Assembly: GCA_963704755.1 (NCBI GenBank) | Contig: OY969938.1 | Span: forward strand, 330,001-362,000 | Reading direction: 5' to 3' | Length of the DNA stretch: 32,000 bases | DNA from: an uncultured Chloroflexia bacterium | GTDB lineage: Bacteria > Chloroflexota > Anaerolineae > Anaerolineales > Anaerolineaceae | In this document: positions 3,121-28,503 of the stretch, in pieces | Layout of the letters: the number at the start of each line of letters is the position of its first letter | How positions within the stretch are numbered: the first letter of the stretch is position 1 | Notes under the pieces: generated by a model | What the model was told of the DNA's origin: nothing | Seen by the model: the letters and a program-made list of their open reading frames with translations, nothing else | Databases searched by the model: none | Translations under genes and position numbers: made by a program

Positions 3121-4191
3121 TTACTGATCAGTAGAACGTGCGACTACTGGTACCTTCAGGGTAATACGGGTGCCTTGTCCGGGAGCCGAATCGATATCAC
3201 AATCTCCACCCAACATCTCCAAGCGCTCCTGAATAATTTTAAGGCCCAGGCCCGGGCTGGCAGCCAGGCTAGCCGGGTCAAAGCCCTTGCCGTTATCGGA
3301 TACGATGATCCGAACGAACTCATCATCCAGCGCCATTTGAACGCTGAGGCTGGGTTTTGAGGCATCCTGGTTATGGCGAACTGCATTGCCCATTAATTCC
3401 TGAACTGCTCGGAAAATCAGCACCTCCAGGTAGGGTTCAATGCGCTGCTCGGTACCCTTGATATTGATGCTGGCCTCTACCCCCGTTTCGTCCTTATAGC
3501 TTTCCACATACCGCTTGATGGTCGGCACCAGGCCCAAATCGTCCAACATCATCGGCCGTAGATTGGTGATAAACGCGCGGATCTTTTGGAAGGTGCCCAT
3601 GGCCGATGACTTCAGGTTATTGAGCTCTTCTTTGGCCCTGACCGGGTCCACTTCGAGTAACCGTGCGGCAATTTCGGCCTGGACGATAAAATTGGACATC
3701 GCCTGGGCCGGGCCATCGTGCATCGCCCGGGATAAGCGCTGTCGTTCGGTTTCCTGGGCATTGATCATTTTTTCCAGGGTGGCGTTTCCACCCCTGGACG
3801 AAGCAGCCGGGCTGCCCGGTTTGGCTCCATCCGCGAGGAAATCCTTCACCTTGGCCAGGATATCGGTGTACCGCTGCAAATTGGTCTGATCGTTCTGGAG
3901 CTTGTCGATTTGGCCGCGCATCACCAACAGCCGCTGCTGGGCATCCAGCATGGCGTTATAGGCCATGCGGATATCACTGCGCGGTACGGTGTCGAACTGG
4001 TTCTGGATCTGCTGCAAATGCGTGCTGATATTCGAACTGCGCTGAGTCATCTTGTTCAACTCGGTCTGACTCTGTTCGAGCATCAGGTTGACTTCTTTGA
4101 GCGCGCCCTTAGACTGCTCCAGTTCGGTGATAATTTGTTGGTAAAACTCGTCCCAGGGATTGATTTCTTTTACTGAGGAATCAGTTACCAT
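3121..4191 (-). CDS. DegS-like cytoplasmic sensor histidine kinase (coiled-coil N-domain, HisKA_3, HATPase_c)
   Basis: H-box [18 protein letters not shown]-box GNAVRHN, G1 DNGKGF, G2 GLGLKII. The N-terminal about 150 aa are coiled-coil-like, with [28 protein letters not shown] resembling B. subtilis DegS. No hydrophobic segments. AGGAG lies 8 nt upstream of ATG 4189-4191. Confidence 0.85.
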
Positions 4192-4447
4192 GTAACTTTC
4201 TCCTGGTCGCAGGCAACTAGAATATTTTAATGAAACGACCGGTCCGGGAAAATCGGGTTAAGTATAGCACAACCTAGAAATCTTGTCCTCGTGATCAAAC
4301 TGTAATTGTAAAGACAATCAAGTCTTGTTAATAAATTTATTGTATTTATGTTGGGTTGCGCTTACCAAAACACAAATCTGCCGGTGAAGAGGCATATTGC
4401 CTGGTAAAAACAAAGGTTGATTTCACCATCCCCTTCCAGTTACCCGG

Positions 4448-5950
4448 TCATTTGCCCCATTGATAAACCGCAATGTTCTCTCCGCCCGACTGGAGCGCAT
4501 AATTCCCCTGGCTGGTGTAAATCAACCGGGCAGTACGAACCAGTTCCGGGTACCAGCTCGGGAACGTGATTAGATATGTCACATTTTGCTCGTCCAGGTA
4601 GGCGGCCAGCCGGTTTTGGTCGCGGATGAAGGGAATCACCTCTGGGGAAACCAGGCCGGCCAGGTCCACCAGGTCGTTATCACAATAATAGCCAATCGCT
4701 CCAATATCGTGCACCGCGATGCGGGCGTCGCCGGGGACATTCTGGTTGACCCATTTCGCCGTGGCGACCATTTCGGTGTTGATAATCGCGACATCCTGGG
4801 CATAGCTGCCGGCGCCTAAAATAAAAAAGGCCACTAATACGACCGGTATGACCATTTGGGCAAACATCCTGACCCAACGTGTGACTCGTCCTGGACGGAG
4901 CCAGTCGACCAATAATATTCGCGTACCGGCCAACCCCAATACAAAATAGATCGGCATCGCCGGGATCAGGTAGCGCCCGTGCTGGTAAACCACCGGCAGC
5001 CGCCAGGCGTAGATGGCCGAGTACCCCAACCACCACAAGGCCAGCCCGATTGTTACCCAGTTCCGGCTGCGCACCGACTGAATAACCCCGGCGATAAAAC
5101 CGGGCAGCAGCAGAATCCCCGCGCCTACCATTGGCAGCGCCAGCATTTCGCCCAGGCGATAGAAAATCGACTGCTGTTGCAGAGCAGCGTATTCGGCTTG
5201 TTTAGCGTAAAAGGTATTGGGCCAGGCTGTACCGCCTACCTTCAAATTAAAGAAGAGATACAGCCCAAACGGCAGGATAAATCCTAACAACGCCAGGCCC
5301 AGTCGCTTTCTACGTTCGCGCCAACCGGTCACTCCGAACCAACCGGCCAGGGCCAGCGGCCCCAACATGGTCAGCCCATCCGGGCGGATCCAGACCGAAA
5401 TACCGCAGACCAGCCCGGCCAGGGCCAGTGAACGCGAATCCCTGGCGATCAACCAGGCCATCAGCAAGAAAACCGCCGCCATCCAGGCCGTTTCCATACC
5501 TGAGCCGGCTGCCCAGACCAGGTGCCATTCCAGCACAATGAACAGCCCAAACCAGGGTATTCTCCCGGCTTTTATCCCACTCAAGCGCCGGTAAGCCAGC
5601 TCGCCCAGCAGGCCGGCTGCCCACAAACCCAAAAAGCCCAAGAAAAAGGTCCATAAATAGGCCGGTTGTTCGCCCAGCAGGTAGCCAATACTGAGCACAA
5701 ACGTCCACAACGGCGAAGTGGACCCGGCCGAAATGGTACCCGGCTTGAACGACCACTGCCCGTACCAGGCCAGATTGCGAGCGTACACCTGGTGGATCCA
5801 GGCGTCATCCAGCGGGAATCCGCTGCCCTGGTAAATCCTTGCCCATAACAGGTAAATCAGCAGGCTGAGGAGTGCAGTCACGCCTAGAATGAGTACAGGC
5901 AAACCCCGATCCCGGAAAAAGCGATTATTTTTTGTTTTCGCGGAGTTCAT
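4448..5950 (-). CDS. Polytopic membrane protein, GT-C-fold glycosyltransferase-like (ArnT/PMT superfamily, family unassigned)
   Basis: 500 aa with many hydrophobic helices. Acidic first-loop motif GFPLDDAWIHQVYARNL follows TM1 directly. Soluble C-terminal region of about 110 aa. ATG 5948-5950 overlaps the upstream stop (ATGA). Confidence 0.6.
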   Translation of the reverse strand: MNSAKTKNNRFFRDRGLPVLILGVTALLSLLIYLLWARIYQGSGFPLDDAWIHQVYARNLAWYGQWSFKPGTISAGSTSPLWTFVLSIGYLLGEQPAYLWTFFLGFLGLWAAGLLGELAYRRLSGIKAGRIPWFGLFIVLEWHLVWAAGSGMETAWMAAVFLLMAWLIARDSRSLALAGLVCGISVWIRPDGLTMLGPLALAGWFGVTGWRERRKRLGLALLGFILPFGLYLFFNLKVGGTAWPNTFYAKQAEYAALQQQSIFYRLGEMLALPMVGAGILLLPGFIAGVIQSVRSRNWVTIGLALWWLGYSAIYAWRLPVVYQHGRYLIPAMPIYFVLGLAGTRILLVDWLRPGRVTRWVRMFAQMVIPVVLVAFFILGAGSYAQDVAIINTEMVATAKWVNQNVPGDARIAVHDIGAIGYYCDNDLVDLAGLVSPEVIPFIRDQNRLAAYLDEQNVTYLITFPSWYPELVRTARLIYTSQGNYALQSGGENIAVYQWGK

Positions 5951-7551
5951 GGCAGCACCTGATAGATTTGCACACCGGCCACGCTTCTCAGGTAATCCAA
6001 CCCCTCCCGATCCCCTGGTTGGGCATACAGGTCCGCCAGTTTAGGCTGATTGTTGTCCAGCAATAAGTACCCCGCGTGATATCGCCGGGCAGCCGCCAGC
6101 ATCGTCTCACGAGATCCATCCGGGACCACCACAGCCGGGTAGCCGCCGGCCAGGTTGAAACCGGGCGGGTTATTGACCATGACTATCGTGTCTGCCGAAA
6201 TGCCCATGTCATGCATCGCCTGGGCTACCTGATCATAAGTTCGTTCGCTGGCCATCCACTTGTCGGCCGTTACCGTCCCACCCAATACCCGGCCGGAATA
6301 CGTCCAGACGGAGATGCCCATACAAACCAGCACGGCCATGACTCCAAAGACTGCCAGAGAGCGTTCCAGCGGCAGCCCCCGGCGTACCTTGAACCATTCG
6401 GCTGCCCTTTCCAATCCCAGGACGGTCAGTACCCACCAGAAGACCTGGAAAGCCGAACCGGAGTGCAAAAAGCCACCTCGTGCGCCCGAGAACGGAAAAA
6501 CGAAAGTCATCACCAGCAGAGTCGCCAGGGCCATTAATCCCGTGAATTGCACAATCTTTTTTCTGCGGTTGATCCAGCCCCCCACGACCATTAATGGCAG
6601 CAGCACAATGTTTCCCTGGACTACCCAGCCATTTTCCAAATTGGTCACCAGGGCCGAAACCCAGGTTTTGATATGATCACCCCAGCCGGCAGCCAGCCAA
6701 CCCGCCAGGCTGATTTGTGCGGCCGGATAAGCAAAGGTCTGGTCGTAATTCGTCAGCCACATCGCCCGTCCTGAGCCCGGCACAAACGGAGAGCCGTAAT
6801 ATTGAAAATTGCGCAGATACCACCAGAAAGTTACCGAAAGGTAGCCCAGTATGATAAGCAAACCTGCCGTTGTGGCTACACGCAGTTTGTTGTTTTGCTT
6901 GCTCGAAAAAGTTGCCCAGACCACCCAGACCAGCGCCCCGGCCAGCCACAGAATCCCATCCGCACGGGTCAGGTGCATCAACCCAGTCACCGCACCAACC
7001 AGCACGACCCGCTGCAGGCTGACCTGTCCGCCCAGCCAGTGCCAATCCGCCAAAAAGGCCAGGATCAGGAATAGCCCACCCAGCAGCATATAGGGCAAAA
7101 AAGTTTCCGGGATGGTCAGATAGATCACGTAAACGCCCGGAAACACCGCCAGCAGACCGGCCAGCCAGGCATAACGCGGACAATTCAACAACCGGGCCGC
7201 GATCCAGGCCGCCTCGACCGGCAGCAACCCGGCCAGCAGGATATACCCGATCCGAGCCGCCCAAAAGCCGCTATTATGCAGCAGCCCCATCCCGGCCGCT
7301 GCTAAAAGGGAAGCCAGCGGCATCCAATAGGTGTGCGAAGGATGCGGCAATCCTTGGGGATCATCCAGGTAGTTCCACAAAACCGGCTCCCAGAAGCCCT
7401 TCCCGCTGGTCAGGTCCTTACCGCCCAGGTAATAATATTCGGCGTCCATGTAGCCCGGCCCGGGTTGAAATGCTGCCGCCAAAGCCGAAACGCCAATCGC
7501 GGCCAGCACCAGCCAGATCCATAAACGCCAATTCGCTCCGGCCTGCGTCAC
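5947..7551 (-). CDS. Polytopic membrane protein, GT-C-fold glycosyltransferase-like
   Basis: 534 aa. GTG start 7549-7551 overlaps the upstream stop (GTGA). First-loop motif PGPGYMDAEYYYLGGKDL after TM1. Many TM helices and a soluble C-terminal region of about 120 aa. Confidence 0.6.
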   Translation of the reverse strand: MTQAGANWRLWIWLVLAAIGVSALAAAFQPGPGYMDAEYYYLGGKDLTSGKGFWEPVLWNYLDDPQGLPHPSHTYWMPLASLLAAAGMGLLHNSGFWAARIGYILLAGLLPVEAAWIAARLLNCPRYAWLAGLLAVFPGVYVIYLTIPETFLPYMLLGGLFLILAFLADWHWLGGQVSLQRVVLVGAVTGLMHLTRADGILWLAGALVWVVWATFSSKQNNKLRVATTAGLLIILGYLSVTFWWYLRNFQYYGSPFVPGSGRAMWLTNYDQTFAYPAAQISLAGWLAAGWGDHIKTWVSALVTNLENGWVVQGNIVLLPLMVVGGWINRRKKIVQFTGLMALATLLVMTFVFPFSGARGGFLHSGSAFQVFWWVLTVLGLERAAEWFKVRRGLPLERSLAVFGVMAVLVCMGISVWTYSGRVLGGTVTADKWMASERTYDQVAQAMHDMGISADTIVMVNNPPGFNLAGGYPAVVVPDGSRETMLAAARRYHAGYLLLDNNQPKLADLYAQPGDREGLDYLRSVAGVQIYQVLP

Positions 7552-9029
7552 GGCTGCCTCGTGTAATGGTAGATTTCCAGGTCGTTGATTACCTTTTTTT
7601 CGGCCAGGTCGTAGTGTGCGTCCAGCCAGGCCAGGTTGGGATCGGCTTCTCCAGCCGTACGGTATTCGTTGATGGCCTGGGTAAAGAGCACAAAATAAAC
7701 GCTCGAGTGGCCTTGGGTAGCCGTTTGGATGTCTACCTGTGGGATCAGGCCAATCGCCTGCTGAGAAGCCGGGGCGTAGGTATCATTGGCGCTGCCCGGC
7801 TGGTCGGCCAGGAATTCCTGTTTCGGGTTCCGGTCGTAGAAATAAGCGGGAAAGAAGCTGAGCTTGTTCTCGTGCAGGATCAGGTCTCCCGGACCGCTGG
7901 TGCCCTCCAGGTAGGCTTCCGCCTGGCGAAATGGCGAGCGCGGAAACTGCTCGAATGTGTAGAAAGATGGCAGCGAAATGCACACCGAAAGCACAAACGC
8001 TCCCACCAGGAAAGGCCCTACCCCTTTTTTCCAACGGCGTCCGACCACCAGGCCGATCAAGGCGTAGTACCCTAACGAAGCGACCAGAAAACCGCGTGCT
8101 ACAAAAACCGGCCGGATCAGGTAGGAAACAATAAACAGCAGCACCGGCGGGACCAGGGCCACACAGGCGAAAAATCCAAGATGGTTAATTTTGCCGCGGA
8201 GTTTCCAGCCCTCCAGGACGGTCAGCACCAGGATTTGCAGGCTGAGGATGGCCACAATCGCAAAGGGAACCGTTCCTAACGGTAAATTGGCCGTGAACTG
8301 GACCAGGGCCTGAAAGACCTCCACCAGGCCTGGCCGGGGTGTCCAGAAGGCCGCCTGGATCTTCGCGATTTGCCCCGGCAGGTAGACCAGCCAGGGCAGC
8401 GCCAGCAGACCAATTCCAAGCTGGGCCAGCAGCAAGCCACCCAGGGCCTTCCAATCCCGCTTGAACAACAGGTACAAATCCGCCACAGCCAGGCCGAAGA
8501 TAGCCAGGTTGTGACTGTACATGGCCACCGCCCCAAACAAAACCAGTCCCAGCCATAAACCTGCCCGGCGGTCGATCTTCTCTTTTTCCAGGAAGATACG
8601 GAAAAAGCACCAGAAATACCCCATCTGCCCCAACACCAACAGGGTGTACATGCGCAGGTCCTGGGCATGGTAGATCTGGATCGGTGAAATGGCCGCCAGC
8701 AAAGCCGTCCAGGCTGCCGGCGCCCATCCCCAGGCACGGCGGACCAGGTCAAATGTAATCAGCAGAATCAGCACCGAGAGAATCGCGCTTAGTAGCCGTA
8801 AAAATACCAGGTTGCTGCTGACCTGCTGCCAGAAGTGCAGCACAAAATAATATAGAGGCGGCATCGTATCGGCCGCTGTGCCTTGCACGATCTGACCCAG
8901 GCTCCTTGCGGACAGAAAGACACTGAATGCATCGTCGTATTGGATTTCCCGTGTGGCAATTCCCAGCAATCGCAAGGCCAGCGCCAATAGCACAATTGCA
9001 AACAGCAGGAACGTCTGGCGCTTGTTCAT
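7548..9029 (-). CDS. ArnT/PMT_2-like (GT39/GT83-type) phospholipid-carrier-dependent glycosyltransferase
   Basis: 493 aa. REIQYDDAFSVFLSARSL...AADTMPPLYYFVLHFW is the pattern I associate with PMT_2/ArnT-type enzymes. Multi-TM with a soluble C-terminal domain. Starts 5 nt after the stop of the upstream gene. Confidence 0.72.
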   Translation of the reverse strand: MNKRQTFLLFAIVLLALALRLLGIATREIQYDDAFSVFLSARSLGQIVQGTAADTMPPLYYFVLHFWQQVSSNLVFLRLLSAILSVLILLITFDLVRRAWGWAPAAWTALLAAISPIQIYHAQDLRMYTLLVLGQMGYFWCFFRIFLEKEKIDRRAGLWLGLVLFGAVAMYSHNLAIFGLAVADLYLLFKRDWKALGGLLLAQLGIGLLALPWLVYLPGQIAKIQAAFWTPRPGLVEVFQALVQFTANLPLGTVPFAIVAILSLQILVLTVLEGWKLRGKINHLGFFACVALVPPVLLFIVSYLIRPVFVARGFLVASLGYYALIGLVVGRRWKKGVGPFLVGAFVLSVCISLPSFYTFEQFPRSPFRQAEAYLEGTSGPGDLILHENKLSFFPAYFYDRNPKQEFLADQPGSANDTYAPASQQAIGLIPQVDIQTATQGHSSVYFVLFTQAINEYRTAGEADPNLAWLDAHYDLAEKKVINDLEIYHYTRQP

Positions 9030-9034
9030 TCGGC

Positions 9035-10285
9035 TTAGCGGTCTTTTTCGGAGAAGGAATCAAAATACATGCGCGGTGGATGGATTGTCCACCAGCGGAC
9101 CCAATACATGACTACAAACATGAACAACGGGAAGGGGAAGAACAGGATTGGGCTCTGAATGGGCTGATACGTATATGCCACCGTCCTCAAAAAGACGTAC
9201 CAGATTCCAACCCCTACCACCAACATGCACAACACCACCATCCAATGGCCAAACTTGCGCCAGCGCTCGACAATTACCGAGAAGACCAAAATTAGCGCGG
9301 GGTACGCGACGATAAAGTTACCCGGGTCGGTCTGCAGGCCGATCCAGAAACTGCCTACCAGGGTCAAACTGGCCGCCCAAATAAACCCACGCGGACCATC
9401 ATGGCGGGTCACAAACCATTCCACCAGCAGCACCACGCCGGTCAGGATTGAAAGGGCAATACCGATCCGTTTGCCAACCCCGGGCAGGTACCCATTCAAA
9501 GCCGCCGAGACGGTCCCTGGCGGGTTGTAGCCCGGGTAACGTAATACTTCGCGCAGGTTTTGCATAATCCAATCCGGGATGAGCAGCGCCGCGATGCCGG
9601 AAAGGATCGCTACCGTCCCGACAAAATACCAGAAAGCCTTCATACGCCGGTTGGAAATGCCCCAGAAAAAGATAAAGACCACAAACAGGGCCACTACCTG
9701 CGGTTTGATCGAAGCGAAGCCCAACAATATGCCGGCGACTTCATCATGCCCATCGCGGATCGCCACCATCGCAGCGGTGATCGCCAGGGCGACCAGGATG
9801 ACCGCATTGCCCAGAATAAGCGGCCGCAAGGCGTGATACCAGAACAGCGAGAAAATTAATATCGCACCTAGCAAGATGGGCTTCGGTTTCCAGCGCACCA
9901 GGTTGAAGGAAAGGAAGGTCATTCCTACCAACGCAGCCTCTAAAACTGCCATCCAGATCGCCCTGGCCAGATCGAAGTTATGCATAAAGGCAAACGGCAG
10001 GAACAGGATGATCGAATAGAGTGGGTATGCCACGCGTAGTTCGTGCTCACCGGCCTGGGCCGGGTGGCCATAAACCATATTTTGGATGCGCAGCGCAACT
10101 TCGTCAGAATAAGGGCTCAATCCGTCTTCGATAAAGGACTGTGCCCCCTCCCAGTGGACCAAAAAATCGGTGCCCCCAGGATTCTGGCGGGTGTAATGGT
10201 AATTACCCAGCACCAGGCCCACGAATAGACCTATTGCCAGCACTACGGCTACGATGAATAAACCAATCGGGCTGCGTCGCCTCAT
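9035..10285 (-). CDS. GT87/DUF2029-like (PimE-type) membrane glycosyltransferase
   Basis: 416 aa, hydrophobic throughout. NPGGTDFLVHWEGAQSFIEDGLSPY after TM1 resembles the GT87 first-loop Asp region. Size fits PimE-like enzymes. Confidence 0.6.
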   Translation of the reverse strand: MRRRSPIGLFIVAVVLAIGLFVGLVLGNYHYTRQNPGGTDFLVHWEGAQSFIEDGLSPYSDEVALRIQNMVYGHPAQAGEHELRVAYPLYSIILFLPFAFMHNFDLARAIWMAVLEAALVGMTFLSFNLVRWKPKPILLGAILIFSLFWYHALRPLILGNAVILVALAITAAMVAIRDGHDEVAGILLGFASIKPQVVALFVVFIFFWGISNRRMKAFWYFVGTVAILSGIAALLIPDWIMQNLREVLRYPGYNPPGTVSAALNGYLPGVGKRIGIALSILTGVVLLVEWFVTRHDGPRGFIWAASLTLVGSFWIGLQTDPGNFIVAYPALILVFSVIVERWRKFGHWMVVLCMLVVGVGIWYVFLRTVAYTYQPIQSPILFFPFPLFMFVVMYWVRWWTIHPPRMYFDSFSEKDR

Positions 10286-10435
10286 TATCGCTGCTTACTC
10301 CAGGAATAAGATGGATTAATCAATTTGCTTCTCCCCAAGCCAATTATAAAACACGAACCCGTTTCGCGTTCATAAAAAGCGGGTCCGGGGTTTTCAGCCG
10401 GGAGGGTAATATCCAAACCGACTGCTTCGATAAAA

Positions 10436-11965
10436 TCAGCGCTCCAACAAGATACTTTTTTCGTCCTGATAATCAACCGACCAGCCAGCCGCTTTTAACT
10501 GCTCGACCAGCGGCATATCGGGCTCGAGCAATACGGTGTGGATATCCCATTGGGCCAAAACATCCTGCCAGCCATCTTCAGCACGGACCGCCTTCATCCA
10601 CTGCTGCAAGATATCATCCCCGAATAGATCCGTACGCCCGTCGACGAAGACCTTTGTGTTCGGTACCGCCCAATCCAGGTAGCCGCCCCAGGCATACGAA
10701 TTCAACAGGTTGCCCGGCAGTCCTTCAGACTCCCAGACCCGGATCGCTTCGAGGGGATAATCCCGGTCGATATAGGCATTCACCCAGGTGGGATAGCTGG
10801 TCACATACAGCTTACCCACCCCAACCAGGGCCAATGCCCCGATCAAAAAGAGGTTGATCCCTTTGCGCAGCCGATTGGGGAGTTCGAGGTTGTAATCCGC
10901 GCGCCCTGTTTGCGGGCCGTTATTTGCCATCCAGTCTTTGAGCTTCTCGATCAGTTCGGACAACACCGGCCACAACGTCCTGGCCAATACCGGGCCGGCA
11001 AACAGCGCAAACGGGGCGATATTCCTTTTGGCCAGAAATCCCAAATACCCCAACCCCAGGATACCCACCAGGTCGGGCCCGTCCATGCGTTTACGGGATA
11101 GGGCCGCGCCGATTACGATCAGGAATAAAACCCACAGGTAAGGTTGCAGCACCAGTTGGTGAAAATCCGGAGAAGCCCATTCGTCGATGTATTGCTGCAA
11201 AACATTGACCCCGATGGTTTTAAAAGGAATCAGCCAGGTATTGATCCCGTTGGGATTGATCAGGACGGCAAAAACACACACCAGCGTCACAATGGCCAGT
11301 TTGCGGATTTGTTTCCATTCCAGCATGTGTTCAGGTGTAATAATCCACTTGTTGAGCAGTTCGCCGGAAATCCAGATGCCCAGGAGGATAAAACCTAAAG
11401 CGTAACCGCCGTGCAGGTTCGACCACAAAACGAAAATGGGCACCAGCCACCAAAGGCGATCCACCCCACGCCATTTATACAGGAACAGAACATAACCCAC
11501 CAGGGCAAACAATAATAGCGAAAACATTTGCGGACGTGGGCTCCACACCAGCGAAAAAAGGATTGCGCATAATACCACTACGAAAGTCCGCATCAGCGGG
11601 GGGCCGTCCATTTGCAGATAGACCAACGCCAGCGCCAGAGTTGCCAGCAGCGCGACCAGCAAACTCAGCCCCAGGTACCCGCCCAGCGAAAATATCAGAT
11701 ACAGGATGATCTCCGAAAGCCAGCTATGGTTGATCCAGGGCTGGCCCATCCGCGTAAAAGAGAATTGATCCGTCAGCATCGGGTGGCCGGTCTGGACCAT
11801 CACCTGCCCGGCCCGCAAATGCCACCACATGTCGCTGTCCAGGGGTGTGCGGGCAGCCATAATGAACACGATCAGCAGCATCAAGATGAAGATAAACCGG
11901 CTGCTCTCGATCTTTTTGGCATCGCTCACAGGTTCAGTCGCAGGCACATTCATAATTTCGCTCAT
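10436..11965 (-). CDS. Polytopic membrane protein, putative GT-C-fold glycosyltransferase
   Basis: 509 aa. First-loop motif TPLDSDMWWHLRAGQVM after TM1. Many TM helices and a soluble C-terminal region of about 110 aa. ATG 11963-11965 overlaps the upstream stop (ATGA). Confidence 0.5.
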   Translation of the reverse strand: MSEIMNVPATEPVSDAKKIESSRFIFILMLLIVFIMAARTPLDSDMWWHLRAGQVMVQTGHPMLTDQFSFTRMGQPWINHSWLSEIILYLIFSLGGYLGLSLLVALLATLALALVYLQMDGPPLMRTFVVVLCAILFSLVWSPRPQMFSLLLFALVGYVLFLYKWRGVDRLWWLVPIFVLWSNLHGGYALGFILLGIWISGELLNKWIITPEHMLEWKQIRKLAIVTLVCVFAVLINPNGINTWLIPFKTIGVNVLQQYIDEWASPDFHQLVLQPYLWVLFLIVIGAALSRKRMDGPDLVGILGLGYLGFLAKRNIAPFALFAGPVLARTLWPVLSELIEKLKDWMANNGPQTGRADYNLELPNRLRKGINLFLIGALALVGVGKLYVTSYPTWVNAYIDRDYPLEAIRVWESEGLPGNLLNSYAWGGYLDWAVPNTKVFVDGRTDLFGDDILQQWMKAVRAEDGWQDVLAQWDIHTVLLEPDMPLVEQLKAAGWSVDYQDEKSILLER

Positions 11966-13609
11966 TGGCGGGGAGACAAATCGATTTCAGCCGGTCGTAC
12001 CGGCGCGGAAAGATTGTAATAGATATTGAAATCACCAATCGTTTCTTCGTTCCAGCGAATATCCAATTTGGTAAATCCTTCTTGCAGCCGCGCGTCCAGG
12101 GCCGGGTTCTTGCTGGTGATATAGGCAATGTCCTGGCTCTGATCGACCAATGCATTATACGGCAGGTAACGGTTATCCCGGCTGGTATATCGCAAATCCA
12201 GGTGGTAGGGCAATTCGGGGGTAAAAATGATCCTTTCACGGCTAAGAAAGTCGAGTGGATAGGACACCCAATAGTTGCTGTATCCGCGCGTCAGGTTATG
12301 ATCATCCAGGAACTGGATCAGGGCGTCCATCGAACTCATGTTGACACGGGCCGGTTCGTAGAACTGGGTGGTGAAACCGGGCGGATTGGTCGAAGCACAC
12401 TGCACATTCCCATAAACCTGGAACACCACCAGCAAAAGAACCACGCCGGTCGCATAGCGGCTGGCAGCAATCCAGCGATCCAATACCAGGCCGGCCAGCA
12501 GCGCCAGCAACACCGTAACCGGAAGAAAATAACGCCCGGAAGGGTCAACGCCAAAAGAAGTCAGCTCAAAAGCCAGCATCAACAGGCCGATGATAGCGGC
12601 AATTAACCGGGTTGCATTTTTCTTGCCGGGATTATCGCGGACGATTTTCCCCACCGTAAAAATGACCAATCCCCAGGCGATCAGGATAAAGGGGATCAAG
12701 GGTAACCCCAGCCAGGCCGCGCTCCAGGGCGGGCGCAGGCCGAGGATTACCGGGAAGCCCAACAATACCAGGGACAAAAAGTGATCCCACAGGATTTTCA
12801 GGTACGAGCCCTGCTCAACGGCCACTGCCTGGCCAAAGATTTCAGTGACCAGCGCGTGCAGGCCGTTTTGGGCCGCATAAATCCACCAGGGCAGGGTGCC
12901 GATCAGCGCGCCCGCCAACATCAAAACCAGCGCCATTATCCAGCCCCGGTTCTTCGCCCTGGAAAAAAGCCGCCACAAAATAAACACCCCCACCGGCACT
13001 GCATAGACCAGGCTGAGCGCATCTGCCCAGAACCCCAGGCCGGCCAGGAAGCCCCACAAGGCAAAAAACGCCCCATAACGGGTTGTTGGCCCGGCTTTGT
13101 CTGCCTGTGTGATTTCCTCAACCAATCTCCAGCCCAGTAGCAATATCAGGTTGCCGATCAAGAGCGCCTCACCATAGCCCCCCAGGGAGGCGGTGGTATA
13201 CAAAGTCAGGTTAACCGTAGGGACGGCCAGCAGCCCGCCCGCAATTAGCCCGGCGCGAGTTCGAACCCCAAAGACGTTTGCCCAGCCAAACCGTGGTTAT
13301 AATGGTTAACAAATATAATCCGCCCTGCACCAGGCGGATCGTGGCGACCGAGCGGCCAAACACAGCGAAAGCCGCCGCCACCAGGTACGCATCCAGGCTG
13401 CCCATGTAAGCCTGGCCATAAAAAAACAGCGGTGTTTCCCCCTGCAGGATGTGCCCCGCCATCAGGCCCACAATGGCTTCATCCGCATTGAATGGCACCA
13501 GTCCCTGCGCAACGATCCAGGCTTTATAGCCGGCTGCCACGAGCAAAATGCCTGCCAGGATTGGGATCGCGGTGAACTTGACCTGTTTTTCATGCATTGG
13601 GGGATTCAT
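11962..13609 (-). pseudogene. ArnT/PMT_2-like GT-C glycosyltransferase interrupted by a +1 frameshift (track ORFs 13211..13609 and 11962..13203)
   Basis: The 132-aa ORF carries TM1 plus the PFNADEAIVGLMAGHILQGETPLFFYG first-loop motif, then turns into an Arg/Gly-rich tail. The frame of the 413-aa ORF is already open from 13296 and reads ...FGVRTRAGLIAGGLLAVPTVNLTLYTTASLGG, a natural continuation. Joined length is about 545 aa, like its neighbours. The break is most plausibly in CCCCAAA at 13266-13272. Confidence 0.65.
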
Positions 13610-13647
13610 ACTTTAGTATTTTAGCCATATATTTTCCAGACGTCCAA
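13605..13647. promoter_or_regulatory. Putative overlapping divergent sigma70-type promoters in the 55-bp gap between GT-C genes
   Basis: Minus strand: TTGGAC (13642-13647) -N18- TAAAAT (13618-13623), only 8 nt before ATG 13609 and with no SD, so the transcript may be leaderless. Plus strand: TTCATA (13605-13610) -N17- TATATT (13628-13633). Hexamers matched by eye only. Confidence 0.3.
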
Positions 13648-13664
13648 AGATTTCGCATGCAGAA

Positions 13665-14981
13665 ATGGCCCGGCCCATGAAGAAACTCGACCCAGAAAAA
13701 ATCGCTCTGTTGATCGTCTTTGCCGGCCTCTCGGTCTTCTATTTTGGCGGGATAAGCCGGGTTCCGTTTCACCCGGATGAAAGCACCGAGATCTTCAGCA
13801 GCGCTGACGTCGACGATTTTATCCGCGATCCAGCTTCATTGTTTTGGAACCCGGCCAATGCCCAGGATCTGCGCCAGTATTACCGCCTGGTGGACCCCGC
13901 CCTGACGCGCACCTGGATCGGTTTGTCTCGCCAGGTGCTGCACCTGGCTGCGCTGCCGGCCGATTGGAACTGGTCTTTGAGTTGGGACGAAAATGCACTT
14001 TCGGGGGCTTTGCCGGCGCCGGTCGAACTTAACCTCGTCCGAGCAGCAGTGGCGATCTTTTTCCCCTTCACCTTATGGTTGGCTTATCTGATCGGGGTCG
14101 AAGTCCTGCAATCCCGCCTGGCCGGCTGGTTCAACTTACTCCTTACGGGCAGCAACGCCCTGGTCCTGCTCGATACCCGCCGGGCGATGGCGGAAAGCCT
14201 GCTGCTTTTCGGCTGCATGTTTACTCTCTGGGGAATTGCTCGCTGGCGTAAAAAACCCTGGCTGGCCGCTCTCCCGGCCGCGATCGCCTTCAATGCCAAA
14301 TATTCTGCTTTGCCATTCTTGGGGCTGGCCCTTTTGGGAATATTCTTCGACGGTTACGGGTTAACAACGCACTTACGCCGGAAAAGCATCCATTTTGGCA
14401 TTGCCATCGCCTTGTTCTTGGCCAGCACGTTTCTGTTGAACCCCGTGTTCTGGTCCGCTCCTGGGCAGGCTTTGCAGCAAGCTTCGCGCCTGCGGGCCGG
14501 ATTGATGACCAACCAGGCGACGGAGATCAGCGCCATCGCGCAAAACGAAGCGCCATCCTCGGTTGGCAGCCGCTTGACCGCCTGGATTGGGGAACTTTTC
14601 GTTCTGCCGCCTATCGCCCAGGACGTCCGCAACTATAACGACCAGATCGATCCTCAAATGGAGATCTACTTGCAAAACCCCGGTAATTCTCTTTTCCGGG
14701 GAGTTTTTGCCGGTGGGCTGATGATGTACCTTTTTCTCGCCGGCCTTGTGCTCTGGATCATTTCGCTATTCAAAGGCACGCCTGGATCTGATACGAGGAA
14801 TAGAACCCTTTTCCTGGCCGGATTCGCCTTACAGATCGTCTCTCAGGTGGCCCTAATCCAGGTGATTTTTCAACGCTATTACCTGACGTTTTTACCCTAC
14901 GTCACCCTGATCGTTGCGTTTGCCCTGGTCAGCATCGTTCGACTTTTCAATCGAGGCCCCGCGCGAAATCCTGCCCAATAA
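13665..14981 (+). CDS. Polytopic membrane protein, GT-C-fold (PMT_2-like) glycosyltransferase
   Basis: 438 aa. ISRVPFHPDESTEIFSSADVDDF acidic loop after TM1. Multiple TM helices to the C-terminus. Divergent from the six-gene minus-strand array. An alternative start is Met5 at 13677. Confidence 0.6.
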   Translation: MARPMKKLDPEKIALLIVFAGLSVFYFGGISRVPFHPDESTEIFSSADVDDFIRDPASLFWNPANAQDLRQYYRLVDPALTRTWIGLSRQVLHLAALPADWNWSLSWDENALSGALPAPVELNLVRAAVAIFFPFTLWLAYLIGVEVLQSRLAGWFNLLLTGSNALVLLDTRRAMAESLLLFGCMFTLWGIARWRKKPWLAALPAAIAFNAKYSALPFLGLALLGIFFDGYGLTTHLRRKSIHFGIAIALFLASTFLLNPVFWSAPGQALQQASRLRAGLMTNQATEISAIAQNEAPSSVGSRLTAWIGELFVLPPIAQDVRNYNDQIDPQMEIYLQNPGNSLFRGVFAGGLMMYLFLAGLVLWIISLFKGTPGSDTRNRTLFLAGFALQIVSQVALIQVIFQRYYLTFLPYVTLIVAFALVSIVRLFNRGPARNPAQ

Positions 14982-15068: not shown

Positions 15069-16199
15069 TTAATCCAGGTGCTTGAAATACACCCGGTGGT
15101 TCTTGTAAGCCTTCCCGCCCACGCTGATCAGGTCTTTGCGCATCTGTACCGCCGATTCGGCTACCTGGGTCAACTCATAGTGTTCGAAATCATACTCGTG
15201 AATGGTCTTATCCATTTCGGAATAAAGCAGTGCATTCCCGCCCCGGCCGTGATACTGCGGCAGCACGCCGGCGCCGTTCAAAGAGACCCAGTTGGTGCGC
15301 TTCATCTCGCGCAGCAGATCGATAATTGCCCAGGGGGTCAAACGCCCCTTGGCCCGCTGCAAGGCCGCCGAAACATCCGGAAAGCCCAGCAGGAAACCCA
15401 CCACTTCCCCTTCATTGAGGATGATCTTGATCAGCCGCGGGTCGGCCACAGAAAGCAGTCCCGCCAGGGTGTAGTCAATTTCGGCCTTGGTCAGGGGATA
15501 GTATTCCCAATTGTTGACGAAGGTCTTATTGTAGGCCTCGCCAATCCGGTCGGCCCATTCCTTCAATTCAGCCTTGGACTTGAACCGCTTGACCTCGAAT
15601 GTACCCCGTTTTTGCACCAGCTCGGCCACTTTATGAACTTTTTCAGGCATTCTGAAACTATCCCGGTGCACATAGCAGGACACAAAATCAACTTCTTTTT
15701 CGAACCCCAGGCTCTCTACCAACCGGACGTAATACTCCGGGTTGTAATTCATCATGATCATCATCTGGCGATGTTCGAAGCCTTCGATCTGGATCCCATA
15801 ACCGTCGAATGGGCTGAAACCCTTGGGCCCAACCACTTCATCCAGTTCGCGCGCTCGCGCCCAATCGAAAATTTTTCCGAACAGCGCGTTGGCGACTTCC
15901 TGGTCGTCGATACATTCGAACAAATAAAACTGCGCCTGGTGTGTGCCATGATACGTGTTGAAAGGTTTGTTCTCCATGGCTGCAATGCGTCCGGCAATTT
16001 TCCCGTCCTTACGCGCCACAAAAAATTCAGCATCTGAGTGCTCGTAAAAAGGATGTTTCTTCGGGTTGAGCATGGTGCGAATGTCACTCAAAACAGGTGG
16101 GACCCATTGTTTGACATCCTTGTAGACGGCGAAGGGGAACATGACGAACTCATTGATCGACTTCTTGTTGTTCAAGTCGATTTTTTCGACAGTAATCAT
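15069..16199 (-). CDS. GNAT-superfamily acyltransferase (about 376 aa, apparently two-lobed)
   Basis: The C-terminal lobe has an acyl-CoA-binding-type motif, VLPQYHGRGGNALLY. The N-terminal lobe ...FFVARKDGKIAGRIAAMEN...FYLFECIDDQEVANALFGKIFDWA is GNAT-like. GAGAGG lies 6 nt upstream of ATG 16197-16199. Substrate unknown. Confidence 0.55.
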   Translation of the reverse strand: MITVEKIDLNNKKSINEFVMFPFAVYKDVKQWVPPVLSDIRTMLNPKKHPFYEHSDAEFFVARKDGKIAGRIAAMENKPFNTYHGTHQAQFYLFECIDDQEVANALFGKIFDWARARELDEVVGPKGFSPFDGYGIQIEGFEHRQMMIMMNYNPEYYVRLVESLGFEKEVDFVSCYVHRDSFRMPEKVHKVAELVQKRGTFEVKRFKSKAELKEWADRIGEAYNKTFVNNWEYYPLTKAEIDYTLAGLLSVADPRLIKIILNEGEVVGFLLGFPDVSAALQRAKGRLTPWAIIDLLREMKRTNWVSLNGAGVLPQYHGRGGNALLYSEMDKTIHEYDFEHYELTQVAESAVQMRKDLISVGGKAYKNHRVYFKHLD

Positions 16200-21370: not shown

Positions 21371-21496
21371 TTGCTTATCTCCTGCTAGAGAATAGATCTA
21401 AAAGTAGTATATCATGCTCAATAATTATAGATGCAAACCGGATAACAAAAGTTGCAGGGGATATAAAAGTCGTTCCCGTCAGCTACAGAAACCTAT

Positions 21497-21688
21497 TTAT
21501 TTTCCCGTTTCCCGGTGATCGGTTGTATAAAAACCGCTGCCTTTATAGATTATATGTGGTGTAGTAAAGACCTTACGAACATGGGTATGGCCTTCCGGGC
21601 AATGGACATCAGGGCCCGAATCGCCCATTTTCAAGCGCACGTCGAACTCACGCCCACAATCATTGCAATGAAACCGGTACGTTGTCAT
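21497..21688 (-). CDS. FmdB-family zinc-ribbon protein (putative regulatory protein)
   Basis: MTTYRFHCNDCGREFDV... (first CxxC knuckle) and a C-terminal GSGFYTTDHR tail are typical of the FmdB/CxxC_CxxC_SSSS family. The second knuckle is CPEGH rather than CxxC. AGGAG lies upstream of ATG 21686-21688. Confidence 0.7.
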   Translation of the reverse strand: MTTYRFHCNDCGREFDVRLKMGDSGPDVHCPEGHTHVRKVFTTPHIIYKGSGFYTTDHRETGK

Positions 21689-21843
21689 TATTCAACTCCT
21701 GCTGTATTCATCAAGGACTGCCGGGGAATCCTTCCTGGCAGCCCTCATTAAACTATCGCAATTTAAGCGTACTCAATTCTCATTAAAATACCGCAAAAGA
21801 AATATTAATTTTTTGTAACTTTTCAGGTTTCTGTTTATAAGTA

Positions 21844-21898
21844 CCCAAAATTGAGTTGTTTGCGAGGGCAAAACCCTCGCTAACAACTCAATTTTGGG
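21844..21898. repeat. Long near-perfect inverted repeat / hairpin (24 bp stem, 5-nt loop)
   Basis: CCCAAAATTGAGTTGTT-t-GCGAGGG-CAAAA-CCCTCGC-t-AACAACTCAATTTTGGG. It lies 87 nt downstream of the response-regulator stop on the minus strand. No U-tract on either side. Confidence 0.6.
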
Positions 21899-21984
21899 GT
21901 TCGTTCCATGCAGGCCAAGCAGCTACTATTGTTTTGTATTTTCTGCCGGAATGCGGCGAGGGTTTGTTTCAGATTGACCTTTAA

Positions 21985-22992: not shown

Positions 22993-23524
22993 TTACTTAT
23001 GGATAATCAACTGGATCTTGAGTTTCCCCAAGGCAATAATATCACCATGTTTAACAGGATAATCGACATGCGGGACAATTTTTTGGCCGTTGACTCGCGT
23101 CCCATTGGAAGAACCCAGGTCCATGATGGAAATCCGCTGTGGACCTACTTTTAATCGATGCGTGCAGCCGTGAAACGCCCTGGGAATATGCCTCGAATTC
23201 CGAAAGGTCCACATCCGGCAAGATCGGCTGTCCTTCGGCGATCCGCCCGAGCGAATATTCCGACCGGCCGCTCAGATTGTACAGCTTTCCCGAATCGACC
23301 ATGCGTAAAGAGACCATCGATTCGTCTTCTTTGGTCAATACAGGTTCCGATTGAGCTTCATCGAGGTGGGCATTTCTCAGTACGTCGGTATTGAGAATAT
23401 CCGAATGAATCCGATCGAAATTTTGAGTAGTCAGAGCATCGGCTGAAACCAGCTGAGCTCCACATTCACTACAAAATAATGCGCCAGGCAATTCTTGGTG
23501 GTGGCAATTAGGGCAGAGGATCAT
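22993..23524 (-). pseudogene. Zinc-ribbon::FHA-domain protein interrupted by a +1 frameshift in a T4 run (track ORFs 23051..23524 and 22993..23214)
   Basis: The N-terminal part has the ribbon CPNCHHQELPGALFCSECG and the first half of an FHA domain, YSLGRIAEGQPILPDVDLSEF..QGVSRLHASIK. The other frame continues VGPQRISIMDLGSSNGTRVNGQKI...GDIIALGKLKIQL, the second half of the FHA domain. Removing one T from TTTT 23149-23152 joins them into a 176-aa protein. ATG 23522-23524 overlaps the upstream stop (ATGA). Confidence 0.75.
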
Positions 23525-24996
23525 GAATCGCTTCCCTCCGGTTCGGGTAACAAAAGTAATGCGCGAGTCCCATATTTAATCTTTTTATCGCCTTCTTTAC
23601 TAAACTGGTGCGTACGTTGAATATGTTCGGCTTCCATCAAGACCGTCCGCGCCAGTTCTCGATCGCCTTGCGATAACAAGTGAGTAGCAAGGTACTGTAA
23701 ATGGCGGGCAGCCTGGTGGTAATTCCCTCCCTTAACCTCGGTTTGGGCTCGTTCCTGCAAGCGATAAAGCGTAAGCCGTGACATAGCCTGTAATATATTA
23801 GTGGGTGGTTTTTCACCCAGATTATGGTCTTTAATGGGCAGAGATAGGTTAATATCGTATCGCGAATATGGAATTGGGTTGGAGGGAACTTCCATTAAAA
23901 TTTTACCGCGTATCAGCTCAAATTCAGAGACATTTTTAGGAACTGGTGGAACTTTGAACTCGAGAATCAGGCTGGTTTTGTTTCCGAAACCAATCGTCCC
24001 GACCGGAACCGGCGATTTACCCATTAATGGGGATAGCTCCGGCTGGATCCGGAATATGTAACGCAGCTCCACGTCATCTCCCACTTCGAAATGGAACTCA
24101 ACCTTGTGGGCGTAGCTGATATTGAATGAGTTCATCTTCTCGACGATATATCGAGAAAGGTCAGATCCGTTTTTTACAAAAATAGCATTCCCGCCACCGG
24201 CAGTGGAGAGCTTGTCCAGGAAATTATCGTTCCATTCGTGGCCAATACCAAAACTGGAAATCGAAAAGCCTTCTGCCCAGGCTTTGGCTGCCAGTTCCAG
24301 GCAAGCTTCTTCATCCCCGTAGGTATGCCCGTCGGTGATCAAAATTAAATGTTTGGATTCGTTTTCCAGGGTAGCCTGGCGCATGACCTGGTAACCCATT
24401 TCTAGCCCCTGGAATATTTCGGTAGCGCCGTTTGGCTGGATCTTGAAGAGCATGTTTTTGAGCAAATGGGGCTCGGTGACCGCCGCGGGTGAAACCACCA
24501 CTTCGGCCCGGTCGCTAAAAGACACAATTCCCAGGGTATCTTTCTTGCGCATTTTGCCCAATAAATCGACGATATTCGAGCGTACCATATCCATTCGCTC
24601 GCCGGCCATCGAGGTCGATCGGTCGATAATCAGGCAAATGTGGATGGGCGGCAGGTCCGATTTTACGATCGGCCGGCTGCATTCCATTTCCAGCAGCGCG
24701 TAGAATAGCTGGGGCTCATCCATTTTCGGGATGCCCGTTTTGCTAAAATAGGCCTTCAGGTTGATCTCCGCCGGCTTGAGGGTGCCGGGTGGCAGCGAAT
24801 AATCATAAGATTTCCGCTTTTCAGCCACAGACAGGACCTCGTAGGCCTCTTTTGCCTGGGTAAAGATTTTTTCAGCATCTTTATCCGGGTTTACATCCGG
24901 GTGAAAGCGTTTAGCCGCCTCGAAATAAGCCGCCCGAATTTCTGCGGGGGTTGCATCGACCGGCAGTTTTAGAAGATTATAATAATTCATCCCCAA
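23521..24996 (-). CDS. J-domain (DnaJ-like) :: von Willebrand factor A domain fusion protein
   Basis: J domain NYYNLLKLPVDATPAEIRAAYFEAAKRFHPDVNPDKD...AYEVLSVAEKRKSYD, with HPD at 24895-24903. vWA MIDAS DRSTS at 24610-24624, plus LILITDGHTYGDEE. The C-terminal about 200 aa look beta-rich and then helical. No TM segment. Confidence 0.85.
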   Translation of the reverse strand: MGMNYYNLLKLPVDATPAEIRAAYFEAAKRFHPDVNPDKDAEKIFTQAKEAYEVLSVAEKRKSYDYSLPPGTLKPAEINLKAYFSKTGIPKMDEPQLFYALLEMECSRPIVKSDLPPIHICLIIDRSTSMAGERMDMVRSNIVDLLGKMRKKDTLGIVSFSDRAEVVVSPAAVTEPHLLKNMLFKIQPNGATEIFQGLEMGYQVMRQATLENESKHLILITDGHTYGDEEACLELAAKAWAEGFSISSFGIGHEWNDNFLDKLSTAGGGNAIFVKNGSDLSRYIVEKMNSFNISYAHKVEFHFEVGDDVELRYIFRIQPELSPLMGKSPVPVGTIGFGNKTSLILEFKVPPVPKNVSEFELIRGKILMEVPSNPIPYSRYDINLSLPIKDHNLGEKPPTNILQAMSRLTLYRLQERAQTEVKGGNYHQAARHLQYLATHLLSQGDRELARTVLMEAEHIQRTHQFSKEGDKKIKYGTRALLLLPEPEGSDS

Positions 24997-25005
24997 AATA
25001 GCGGC

Positions 25006-25902
25006 TTAGATGTATTGCACGATAACTACGCTGATGTTATCCGGTCCGCCGGCCGCATTGGCTGAATCGACCAGGTTTTTACATGCTACCGATGGGTTTC
25101 GCGCGCTGGTGACGATTTGGAACACTTCGTTCTCAGAAACACTCCCCCACAAGCCATCGCTGCATAATAACATGTAACCCGGATGTGGCATAGGGAAGGA
25201 TTGAATATCCGGTTTAAAAGGTTCCGTCTGGCCCAACGCCCGGTACAACACATTCCGATTGGGGTGGACCGCTGCTTCGGCCTCGGTAATCTGGCCCAAC
25301 TCGACCAAGCGCCGGACCAGAGAATGATCGTGTGTAATCGCCTGCATACGGCCATCCGTGAAAATGAAATACGCCCGGCTGTCACCCACGTGGGCAATCG
25401 TGACTTGCTCACCGATCACCAGGGCTGCCGTTAAAGTCGTGCCACCACCCGGTGCTTTACGGCTGACGACCTGCTGGGCTTTTGCAACCCCGGCTTCCAT
25501 AATCTCTTGCAGGCTTTCAGACGGCGATTCGGCATCCAGGCTGATGTGAGGTAAATAGACCTGTGAAAGCACGTGGTTGGCCATCGTGCGGGCCGCTACG
25601 CTGCTGGCAATTTCACCATATTCATAGCCACCCATCCCATCCGCGATAATAAACAGGCCAAACGGAATTTCGATCGTCCCATCCGCCAGCAAAGCGCTCA
25701 TAGTAAATATCGCGTCTTCGTTATGGTCCCTTTGCAGGCCCACGGACTGGCCGCAGCCCACCAGAAAATGCGCCGGGTGCATACTGACCGGTTTGACGGA
25801 TACTGCCTGCAACTGGTCCTCAGTCAACGGCGCGGTTTGGACGTCGGTACTCTTTGGTTCCGTTGTTTCCTTACGGAATAATTTTTTGAAAAAGTTAGCC
25901 AA
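25006..25902 (-). CDS. PP2C-family Ser/Thr protein phosphatase
   Basis: RDHNEDA, FIIADGMGGYEYGEIAS, LLCSDGLWG and GGPDNISVVIV motifs. No C-terminal TM segment. The stop is 9 nt before the next gene's ATG. Confidence 0.9.
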   Translation of the reverse strand: MANFFKKLFRKETTEPKSTDVQTAPLTEDQLQAVSVKPVSMHPAHFLVGCGQSVGLQRDHNEDAIFTMSALLADGTIEIPFGLFIIADGMGGYEYGEIASSVAARTMANHVLSQVYLPHISLDAESPSESLQEIMEAGVAKAQQVVSRKAPGGGTTLTAALVIGEQVTIAHVGDSRAYFIFTDGRMQAITHDHSLVRRLVELGQITEAEAAVHPNRNVLYRALGQTEPFKPDIQSFPMPHPGYMLLCSDGLWGSVSENEVFQIVTSARNPSVACKNLVDSANAAGGPDNISVVIVQYI

Positions 25903-25938
25903 GGTACCTCCGCTTTGGGGGAAGAATGGTGGGATAGG

Positions 25939-27744: not shown

Positions 27745-27935
27745 ATAACCAGGAGCCAGTTGCTTTACCGAGCTTTGATTATCACCAAAGCTTTGAGTGA
27801 TACGTTGAGTATCCAGCGCTGCCTCCTTTAACCATTATTTTCCCCTCTATATTCTAGATAAAAATAAGCGTCTTTCCATGAAAATTGAGTGAAAACGACC
27901 TTACTAGAACGAATGAGGGACAATACCTTCCCTAA

Positions 27936-28487: not shown

Positions 28488-28503
28488 TAATCCTTATTTA
28501 TGA

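Follow-up and report, generated by a model that had tools for sequence, protein, structure and literature searches.

What might seven adjacent genes for large, hydrophobic membrane proteins be doing together in a genome of the Anaerolineae? The question is raised by the window examined here, by which we mean the whole 32,000-nucleotide (nt) stretch of contig OY969938.1, in which an array of such genes, labelled G1 to G7 by ascending coordinate, occupies positions 4448-14981. A reading made earlier from the letters alone (the sequence-only reading) had taken all seven products for glycosyltransferases of the GT-C fold, and that assignment holds: all seven are supported as GT-C-fold glycosyltransferases, the evidence being graded by gene and coming from Pfam families, from predicted structures compared by Foldseek and from profile-profile links. 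A shared extracytoplasmic glycan pathway would be their likeliest function, and on balance we consider it probable, if well short of certain, that the array comprises seven GT-C glycosyltransferases acting on one common envelope glycoconjugate.

Two of the proteins are placed directly by curated families. G3 (7548-9029, minus strand; 493 amino acids (aa)) is a PMT_2-family GT-C glycosyltransferase that matches Pfam PMT_2 (PF13231, an ArnT/PMT-like family of GT39/GT83 type; gathering threshold 26.1 bits) at 6.8e-8 and 33.3 bits, and G4 (9035-10285, minus strand; 416 aa) is a GT87-family member that matches Pfam GT87 (PF09594; threshold 25 bits) over residues 87-306 at 1e-14 and 55.3 bits. These are the only window copies to pass a curated family threshold, those of G1, G2, G6 and G7 lying below that of PMT_2. 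The PMT_2/ArnT-like gene G6 (11962-13609, minus strand) and the PMT/PMT_2-like gene G7 (13665-14981, plus strand; 438 aa) are placed through their orthologues. PMT_2 is matched by 13 of 25 G6 orthologues (best 5.3e-11); the window copy of G7 reaches Pfam PMT at 0.0095, below the cut-off, and 12 of its 25 orthologues match PMT_2 (7.9e-9) and 12 of 25 match PMT (1.3e-8). The family searches thus agree with the sequence-only reading, above cut-off for G3 (PMT_2) and G4 (GT87) and via orthologues for G6 and G7.

AlphaFold2 (AF2) models were made for G2 (5947-7551, minus strand; 534 aa) and G5 (10436-11965, minus strand; 509 aa), whilst G1, G3, G4, G6 and G7 were placed using Pfam or hhalign. The window copy of G2 has no Pfam match, and a few of its close homologues carry PF13231 or PF02366. 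Its model, built from database homologues (predicted local distance difference test (pLDDT) 92.5, predicted template modelling score (pTM) 0.92), was compared with the PDB by Foldseek, and the top 34 matches all had a GT-C fold (template modelling (TM) scores 0.5-0.64), among them STT3 at 5.4e-8 and ArnT at 7.6e-8 (TM-scores 0.56/0.56), with AglB, ALG12, PglB, AftA, DPY19 and Pmt4 also represented. For the G5 model (pLDDT 89, pTM 0.89) the top 22 matches were all GT-C proteins, STT3 being the best at 1.8e-6 (query TM-score (TMq) 0.56-0.61) and DPY19, AglB, ArnT and AftA/B/D following. With GT-C enzymes on top and no placement among transporters, the structural comparison of these two models again sides with the earlier assignment, and a transporter or Wzy-type identity was rejected on the same rankings. 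The two models contain about 11-13 long helices each, and every one of the seven proteins shows 7-10 strongly hydrophobic segments in a crude hydropathy scan.

The remaining protein, G1 (4448-5950, minus strand; 500 aa), is GT-C-like and has no Pfam match, either on the window copy or on 25 orthologues. It matches NCBIfam NF047440, the uncharacterised family of the Leptospira putative glycosyltransferases LA_3751/LA_3752, over about 270 residues at 8.6e-7 and 28.1 bits, as do 20 of the 25 orthologues (best 7.2e-12), all far below the cut-off; scores of 28-45 bits against a cut-off of 200 bits mark the G1 family as a distant relative of that family and not a member. In profile-profile alignment by hhalign, G1 paired with G2 at 97.6% (E 3e-12, 370 columns), with G7 at 94.9% and with G6 at 87.6%, and G6 in turn paired with G3 at 95.8% over 441 columns and with G2 at 95.6%. 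The G6 profile also met E. coli ArnT at 46% (E 2e-4), whilst the other six array profiles gave weak alignments with this single ArnT sequence. Because of the hhalign links among their profiles, G1, G2, G3, G6 and G7 are demonstrably homologous at the profile level and form one anciently diverged PMT_2/ArnT-like group, G4 (GT87) and G5 being separate GT-C lineages. The sequence-only reading had held that the seven share almost no sequence beyond the fold; this stands by BLASTP, which found no pairwise similarity among them, and falls at the level of profiles, where only G4 and G5 remain apart. Recent tandem duplication was rejected, since the seven show no such BLASTP similarity and have separate sets of orthologues.

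Each protein had also been credited with an acidic motif shortly after its first transmembrane helix (TM1), and all seven motifs are found in the translations: FPLDDAWIH in G1 (D48, D49), GYMDAEYYY in G2 (D36), IQYDDAFSV in G3 (D32, D33), GGTDFLVHW in G4 (D40), PLDSDMWWH in G5 (D43, D45), FNADEAIVG in G6 (D43, E44) and FHPDESTEI in G7 (D38, E39). Their distance from TM1 had been overestimated, at 10-25 residues compared with the roughly 0-12 that we measured from the hydropathy scan and the ends of the AF2 helices. Alignments of 25-30 orthologues per gene showed the acidic residues to be conserved, invariant in six of the seven families with G4 the exception. In G1 both D48 and D49 are invariant (25 sequences), as are D36 in G2, Y31 and D32 in G3 (where D33 is at least 90% conserved), D43 and E44 in G6, and P34, F35, H36, P37, D38 and E39 in G7; G5 carries a D-x-D loop after TM1, in which D45 is invariant and D43 is Asp in 24 of 25 sequences. 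D43-E44 of G6 align with D31-E32 of E. coli ArnT, in an alignment of 46% probability that is the sole residue-by-residue comparison. In the G2 and G5 models the acidic residue lies where the first helix past TM1 begins, at its N-terminal tip. In PimE the catalytic Asp (D58) likewise sits at the tip of JM1, the first juxtamembrane helix, and it has equivalents in ALG6, ArnT and PglB (PMC12041525).

The N-termini ahead of TM1 hold 1-5 Lys/Arg, counted on hydropathy-based helix calls that are too incomplete for a full positive-inside count; since the scan under-calls transmembrane helices, a count over alternating loops is uninformative. An N-in topology with outward-facing acidic loops fits the Lys/Arg-rich N-termini and is suggested by analogy with solved GT-C structures.

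G5 deserves separate mention. Neither Pfam nor NCBIfam matches the window copy, Pfam does not match any of its 120 best homologues, and its profile finds no PDB sequence, oligosaccharyltransferase (OST) chains included. By profile search the family numbers 33,782 clusters of 50% identity at E<=1e-3, 23,231 at E<=1e-10 and 7,239 at E<=1e-30. Its homologues are labelled 'hypothetical protein' in the source databases, and one is named 'Glycosyltransferase RgtA/B/C/D-like' in UniRef. Besides the D-x-D loop, the family has an invariant block, N-x-Y-x-W-G-G-Y-L-x-W / F-x-D-G-R-T-D, about 35 residues past the last transmembrane helix; in G5 its W-G-G-Y spans W426-Y429 and its D-G-R-T-D spans D442-D446. 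On its predicted structure, G5 is a member of a large unannotated GT-C family.

The layout of the array is compact. ORF (open reading frame) coordinates give 4-nt ATGA/GTGA overlaps at the G6/G5, G3/G2 and G2/G1 junctions, a 5-nt gap between G4 and G3 and a 150-nt gap between G5 and G4 (10286-10435), and G7 is divergent from G6 across a 55-nt spacer (13610-13664). The six ORFs other than G6 are intact, and the overlaps and gaps are those that the sequence-only reading had described. It had also seen a non-hydrophobic C-terminal part in five of the proteins, and the hydropathy scan finds such tails, measured at 117-143 aa, in G1, G2, G3, G5 and G6; after the last hydrophobic segment only 20 aa remain in G4 and 13 aa in G7, both of which are without a C-terminal domain. 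The soluble domains of G1 (about 120 aa) and G3 (about 139 aa) are matched in G2 (about 105-117 aa) and G5 (about 105-120 aa) by tails that form small alpha/beta domains in the AF2 models. The AT skew of the plus strand tracks the coding strand of the array's hydrophobic genes. A promoter and terminator scan gave no enrichment over shuffled sequence, the weak promoter-like matches on both strands of the G6/G7 spacer did not exceed shuffle expectation, and the RNA fold of the G5/G4 gap is not unusual (z = -0.78).

The description of the array as seven consecutive ORFs stands for six of them and fails for the sixth, of about 545 aa, which is split into two ORFs in different frames: 13211-13609 (132 aa, bearing FNADEAIVG) and 11962-13203 (413 aa). 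The frameshift site (CGTCTTTGGGGTTCG; 13262-13276, minus strand) contains a T-run at 13270-13272 and a G-run at 13266-13269, and a one-base deletion in this TTTGGGG run (13266-13272; a +1 frameshift) restores a G6 protein of 548 aa that agrees residue for residue with the orthologue consensus. Orthologues of G6 in 55 other genomes are intact, 530-565 aa long and colinear with the reconstructed protein, which in the profile alignment is also colinear with E. coli ArnT across the frameshift junction. Because G6 is intact in its orthologues and a single base restores its frame, it is either a recent pseudogene, carrying a real mutation, or the victim of a homopolymer sequencing error; the homopolymer context fits either, and in this genome G6 is thus either inactivated or mis-sequenced. 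In another genome sampled here (locus L007, metagenome-assembled genome (MAG) MFD04408) the orthologues of G3 and of EPSP synthase are each split into two adjacent fragments. To judge from this fragmentation, some of these metagenome-assembled genomes seem to contain assembly errors of the frameshift type, a point that bears on how the G6 frameshift is to be read.

In order to place the array in its lineage we used a synteny sample of 80 loci around G5 homologues, drawn from GTDB species genomes. Homologues assign the window to the class Anaerolineae. The array proteins are singletons when clustered at 90% identity, and orthologues of every array gene are found at 35-60% identity. All seven genes occur in identical order and orientation in 21 of the 80 loci, which confirms the co-conservation that the sequence-only reading had looked to, and nine further loci carry six of them. 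The divergent arrangement of G6 and G7 is kept in every one of the 21 full arrays, most of which also share their flanks, with phosphofructokinase (PFK) and a HisKA_3 kinase on one side and a GNAT protein, DUF255, a hydrolase, EPSP synthase and thioredoxin on the other. The array is vertically inherited in the Anaerolineae. Three Bellilinea loci, including that of B. caldifistulae GOMI-1 (L005, L015, L026), hold G2-G7 and the same flanks without G1 and so amount to a natural 'knockout', with which Longilinea arvoryzae (L010), a carrier of all seven, can be compared.

Gene content varies around this core. In relatives the G5/G4 interval is the site of extra genes, a second GT87-like membrane gene in 32 loci and an oppositely oriented CN_hydrolase gene in 25 (e.g. 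L002, L006, L007 and L083), and the 150-nt gap of the window retains no remnant of either. More distant Anaerolineae have expanded arrays with extra PMT_2, GT87-like and YfhO genes and with G5 duplicated two to three times, and further additions there comprise Wzy_C with TPR (10 loci), Bac_transf (8) and a Wzx-type flippase, Polysacc_synt_3 (4); interleaved expanded arrays are seen, for example, in L024, L025, L043 and L011. The additions tie the array to envelope polysaccharide synthesis. In six loci (L008, 13352-14449, and five others) a stand-alone G5 is followed some 2 kb downstream by a gene of the GDP-mannose 4,6-dehydratase type, which might hint at a deoxyhexose pathway.

The sequence-only reading had seen no donor-synthesis or flippase partner for these enzymes, and this is borne out both for the window and for the whole lineage. 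Among the other window ORFs of at least 100 aa none has a GT2, GtrA, SMR, MATE, flippase or polymerase domain, the small ORFs in the two larger gaps (21371-21984 and 27745-28503) look soluble, and tblastn with E. coli ArnC, ArnE and ArnF found no match in the window. The same search of 82 related loci gave no ArnE/F-like match.

How, then, might the array work? Outside the membrane, GT-C enzymes draw on lipid-linked donors, and acceptor glycans can be bound by additional extracytoplasmic domains (PMC11127046). Under the explanation that we favour, the six co-oriented, translationally coupled genes and the one divergent gene would make an operon-like set of extracytoplasmic transferases, each drawing its sugar from a donor linked to polyprenyl phosphate on the outer side of the cytoplasmic membrane, with the conserved Asp/Glu just past TM1 as the putative catalytic base. 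Each would add a different sugar or linkage at a different position of one envelope glycoconjugate, which could be a lipoglycan, a polysaccharide of the wall or the glycan of a glycoprotein, for example. The C-terminal domains of about 105-140 aa in five of the enzymes probably aid acceptor binding, as in EmbC and GT136 (PMC11127046, PMC3044687), and donor synthesis, by a GT2 polyprenyl-phosphate glycosyltransferase, and flipping would be encoded elsewhere in the genome. Fold and family assignments, residue conservation, gene linkage and synteny are shown by the analysis; donor type, topology, a common acceptor, the order of action and the role of the C-terminal domains we infer. The 'stepwise assembly line' proposed earlier may be one form of such a pathway, and modular additions to a common glycan would fit at least as well; since gene content varies between lineages, we favour modular additions over a strictly linear line.

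Several observations weigh against this explanation. G1 is absent from Bellilinea-type loci, G3 or G7 from many distant ones, and G5 stands alone in 15 loci; with so variable a gene content there is no need for the enzymes to work in a set order, or even on a single product. By tblastn, just 3 of 82 related loci have an ArnC-like GT2 gene within 10 kb, which, together with the absence of GT2 and flippase genes from the window, leaves the link to a donor unsupported by gene context. D40 of G4 is Asp in 19 and Glu in two of 25 orthologues, acidic therefore in 21 of 25 and not invariant; it also lies outside the Pfam GT87 match, which begins at residue 87, and no PimE chain is among the PDB sequence matches of the G4 profile. 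G6 is frameshifted in this genome. Lastly, profile searches of PDB sequences gave no meaningful match for any of the seven families, so that sequence alone cannot place them and structural and profile-profile methods are needed.

Three other explanations were weighed against this evidence. The seven could be real GT-C enzymes serving several unrelated targets, for instance protein O-glycosylation for the PMT-like members, a glycolipid for the GT87 member and polysaccharide decoration for others, and be neighbours by descent, which we consider unlikely. Single members are gained and lost by lineage, with G5 alone in 15 of the 80 loci, the seven fall into at least three families unrelated at the profile level and the array is flanked by the housekeeping genes PFK, EPSP synthase and thioredoxin, all of which would suit such a history; the 4-nt overlaps, however, imply co-translation of G6-G5 and of G3-G2-G1, an order and orientation kept in 21 genomes at 35-60% identity would be unusual for functionally unrelated genes, and the genes added in relatives are again envelope-glycan genes. 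Far less probable is that some or all of the seven are not glycosyltransferases and act instead as transporters, as Wzy/WaaL-type polymerases or ligases, or as non-catalytic GT-C-fold subunits such as PIGU. Transporters come far down the Foldseek lists (probability <0.25, TM-score <0.2), invariant acidic residues occupy the canonical catalytic position, and there are PMT_2, PMT or GT87 matches in G3, in G4 and in orthologues of G2, G6 and G7, all of which speak against it even though five of the seven window copies are below every curated family cut-off, one G7 orthologue weakly matches O_anti_polymase and PIGU, which has a GT-C-like fold without a glycosyltransferase role, is among the G2 Foldseek matches (PMC12041525).

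A third possibility concerns G5, and possibly other members, as enzymes of the STT3/PglB/AglB type that transfer an oligosaccharide en bloc from polyprenyl-diphosphate, the other GT-C enzymes extending the lipid-linked glycan as ALG3/9/12/6/8/10 do ahead of OST in the lumen of the endoplasmic reticulum; we regard this as quite improbable. STT3 subunits and AglB are the best structural matches of G5, which has the D-x-D loop (D43, D45) after TM1 and, at a position comparable to the WWDYG of OSTs, its invariant W-G-G-Y / D-G-R-T-D block, and in some relatives the array is interspersed with Wzx, Bac_transf and Wzy-like genes. Against these resemblances, STT3 is matched just as well by G2, and its place at the top may therefore mean only that the PDB contains many STT3 entries; the TM-scores are only 0.55-0.61, the C-terminal domain (about 105 aa) is much smaller than the periplasmic domains of OSTs, and the profile search of PDB sequences finds no similarity to any OST. 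More broadly, it seems to us unlikely that the array builds a complex envelope lipoglycan or wall polysaccharide wholly outside the membrane, as a Chloroflexota counterpart of lipomannan (LM), lipoarabinomannan (LAM) and arabinogalactan, or that it represents an ALG/OST-like pathway in which G5 performs the final en bloc transfer.

Known systems offer partial parallels to the seven-gene array. The set of enzymes that assembles lipoglycans and arabinogalactan in mycobacteria and corynebacteria (PimE/GT87, MptA-D, EmbA-C and AftA-D, with polyprenyl-phosphate mannose or arabinose as donors) likewise includes several different GT-C enzymes, a GT87 member among them, and AftA, AftB, AftD and EmbB appear among the Foldseek matches of the G2 and G5 models. 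Mycobacterial GT-C genes are largely dispersed, whereas the seven of the array lie in one place. The mycobacterial enzymes have an acidic catalytic residue in the first extracytoplasmic loop and, in some members, a C-terminal extracytoplasmic domain (PMC12041525, PMC3485146), to which the acidic motifs and C-terminal tails of the array would correspond. The gene for their donor synthase, Ppm1, lies apart from those of most of the transferases (PMC12041525, PMC3485146), a precedent (PMC3485146) for an array that is likewise without a linked synthase. In contrast to that set, none of the array families has detectable similarity to any solved mycobacterial enzyme in PDB profile searches, and the host lineage, Chloroflexota, has no known phosphatidylinositol mannosides (PIM), LM, LAM or arabinogalactan.

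Three-component systems (GtrA/B/C, ArnC/E/F/T, CsbB/GtcA/YfhO and Citrobacter GT136) combine a GT2 polyprenyl-phosphate sugar synthase, a flippase and a GT-C enzyme. They share with the array a GT-C enzyme with a conserved loop after TM1 and, in some, a C-terminal module, which in those systems binds the acceptor (PMC11127046), and the G6 profile is in register with the D-E motif of E. coli ArnT; they differ in that the array has no linked synthase or flippase and has seven GT-C genes instead of one. The G5 and G2 models find their best structural matches in OSTs (STT3, AglB and PglB; GT66) and the C-mannosyltransferase DPY19. OSTs are set apart from the two proteins by the want of sequence similarity and by their much larger C-terminal domain; their WWDYG, DK and MI motifs are not found as such, G5 having its different W-G-G-Y block. 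In Rhizobium leguminosarum, RgtA/B/C/D are ArnT-like galacturonosyltransferase paralogues, some of them adjacent, each modifying a different position of one envelope glycolipid, and their donor synthase gene, rgtE, is unlinked from the transferases. The Rgt system acts on the lipopolysaccharide core and lipid A of a diderm, and the array can be likened to it, the tie at sequence level being one UniRef name of a G5 homologue only.

Among the neighbours of the array, the gene downstream of G1 (3121-4191, minus strand) encodes a DegS-like HisKA_3 histidine kinase (Pfam HisKA_3, HATPase_c and DegS) that is soluble, its translation having no hydrophobic segment. It remains beside the array even where, as in distant relatives, the other flanks have changed, often with a response regulator close by, and on this association it may be a regulator of the array. 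The region between the kinase gene and G1 (4192-4447) has a more stable fold than shuffled sequences (z = -2.46; 1 of 200 shuffles as stable) and no Rfam match; tRNA and Rfam searches of the window as a whole gave no matches. PFK, EPSP synthase and thioredoxin are the housekeeping genes among the flanks. A protein of 376 aa with a faint GNAT match (15069-16199, minus strand) is convergent with G7 and, at 55-77% identity in relatives, is more conserved than any array gene. Farther away, a run of four genes at 23051-27744 (minus strand) encodes a zinc-ribbon protein, a protein that combines DnaJ with von Willebrand A, a PP2C phosphatase and a fusion of a Ser/Thr kinase with a PQQ-like beta-propeller, and a second Ser/Thr kinase is encoded at 30184-31380 (plus strand).

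The array proteins are new, uncharacterised members of the GT-C class and mark no departure from the known GT-C paradigm, though the array is a good lead for work on the Chloroflexota envelope; a run of seven to more than 10 GT-C genes with neither synthase nor flippase is unusual in size, not in kind. We found no description of the array in the literature on GT-C enzymes or mannosyltransferases of the Anaerolineae and Chloroflexota. Placing the G5 family, some 23,000 clusters without a Pfam model, in the GT-C fold is a useful gain in annotation. Two cultured carriers provide genetic handles: Longilinea arvoryzae KOME-1 and, by nature lacking G1, Bellilinea caldifistulae GOMI-1. Anaerolineae are filamentous bacteria abundant in digesters, sediments and activated sludge. 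The cell envelope of the Chloroflexota is poorly understood and its layering debated (PMC7332563). Should either variant of the broader proposal be true, the product of the array would account for part of this debated multilayered envelope, and, if the en bloc variant holds, the G5 family would stand as a new class of lipid-linked glycan transferase in bacteria. A deeply conserved, operon-like array of at least seven putative extracytoplasmic glycosyltransferases suggests that the envelope of the Anaerolineae contains a complex glycan as yet uncharacterised.

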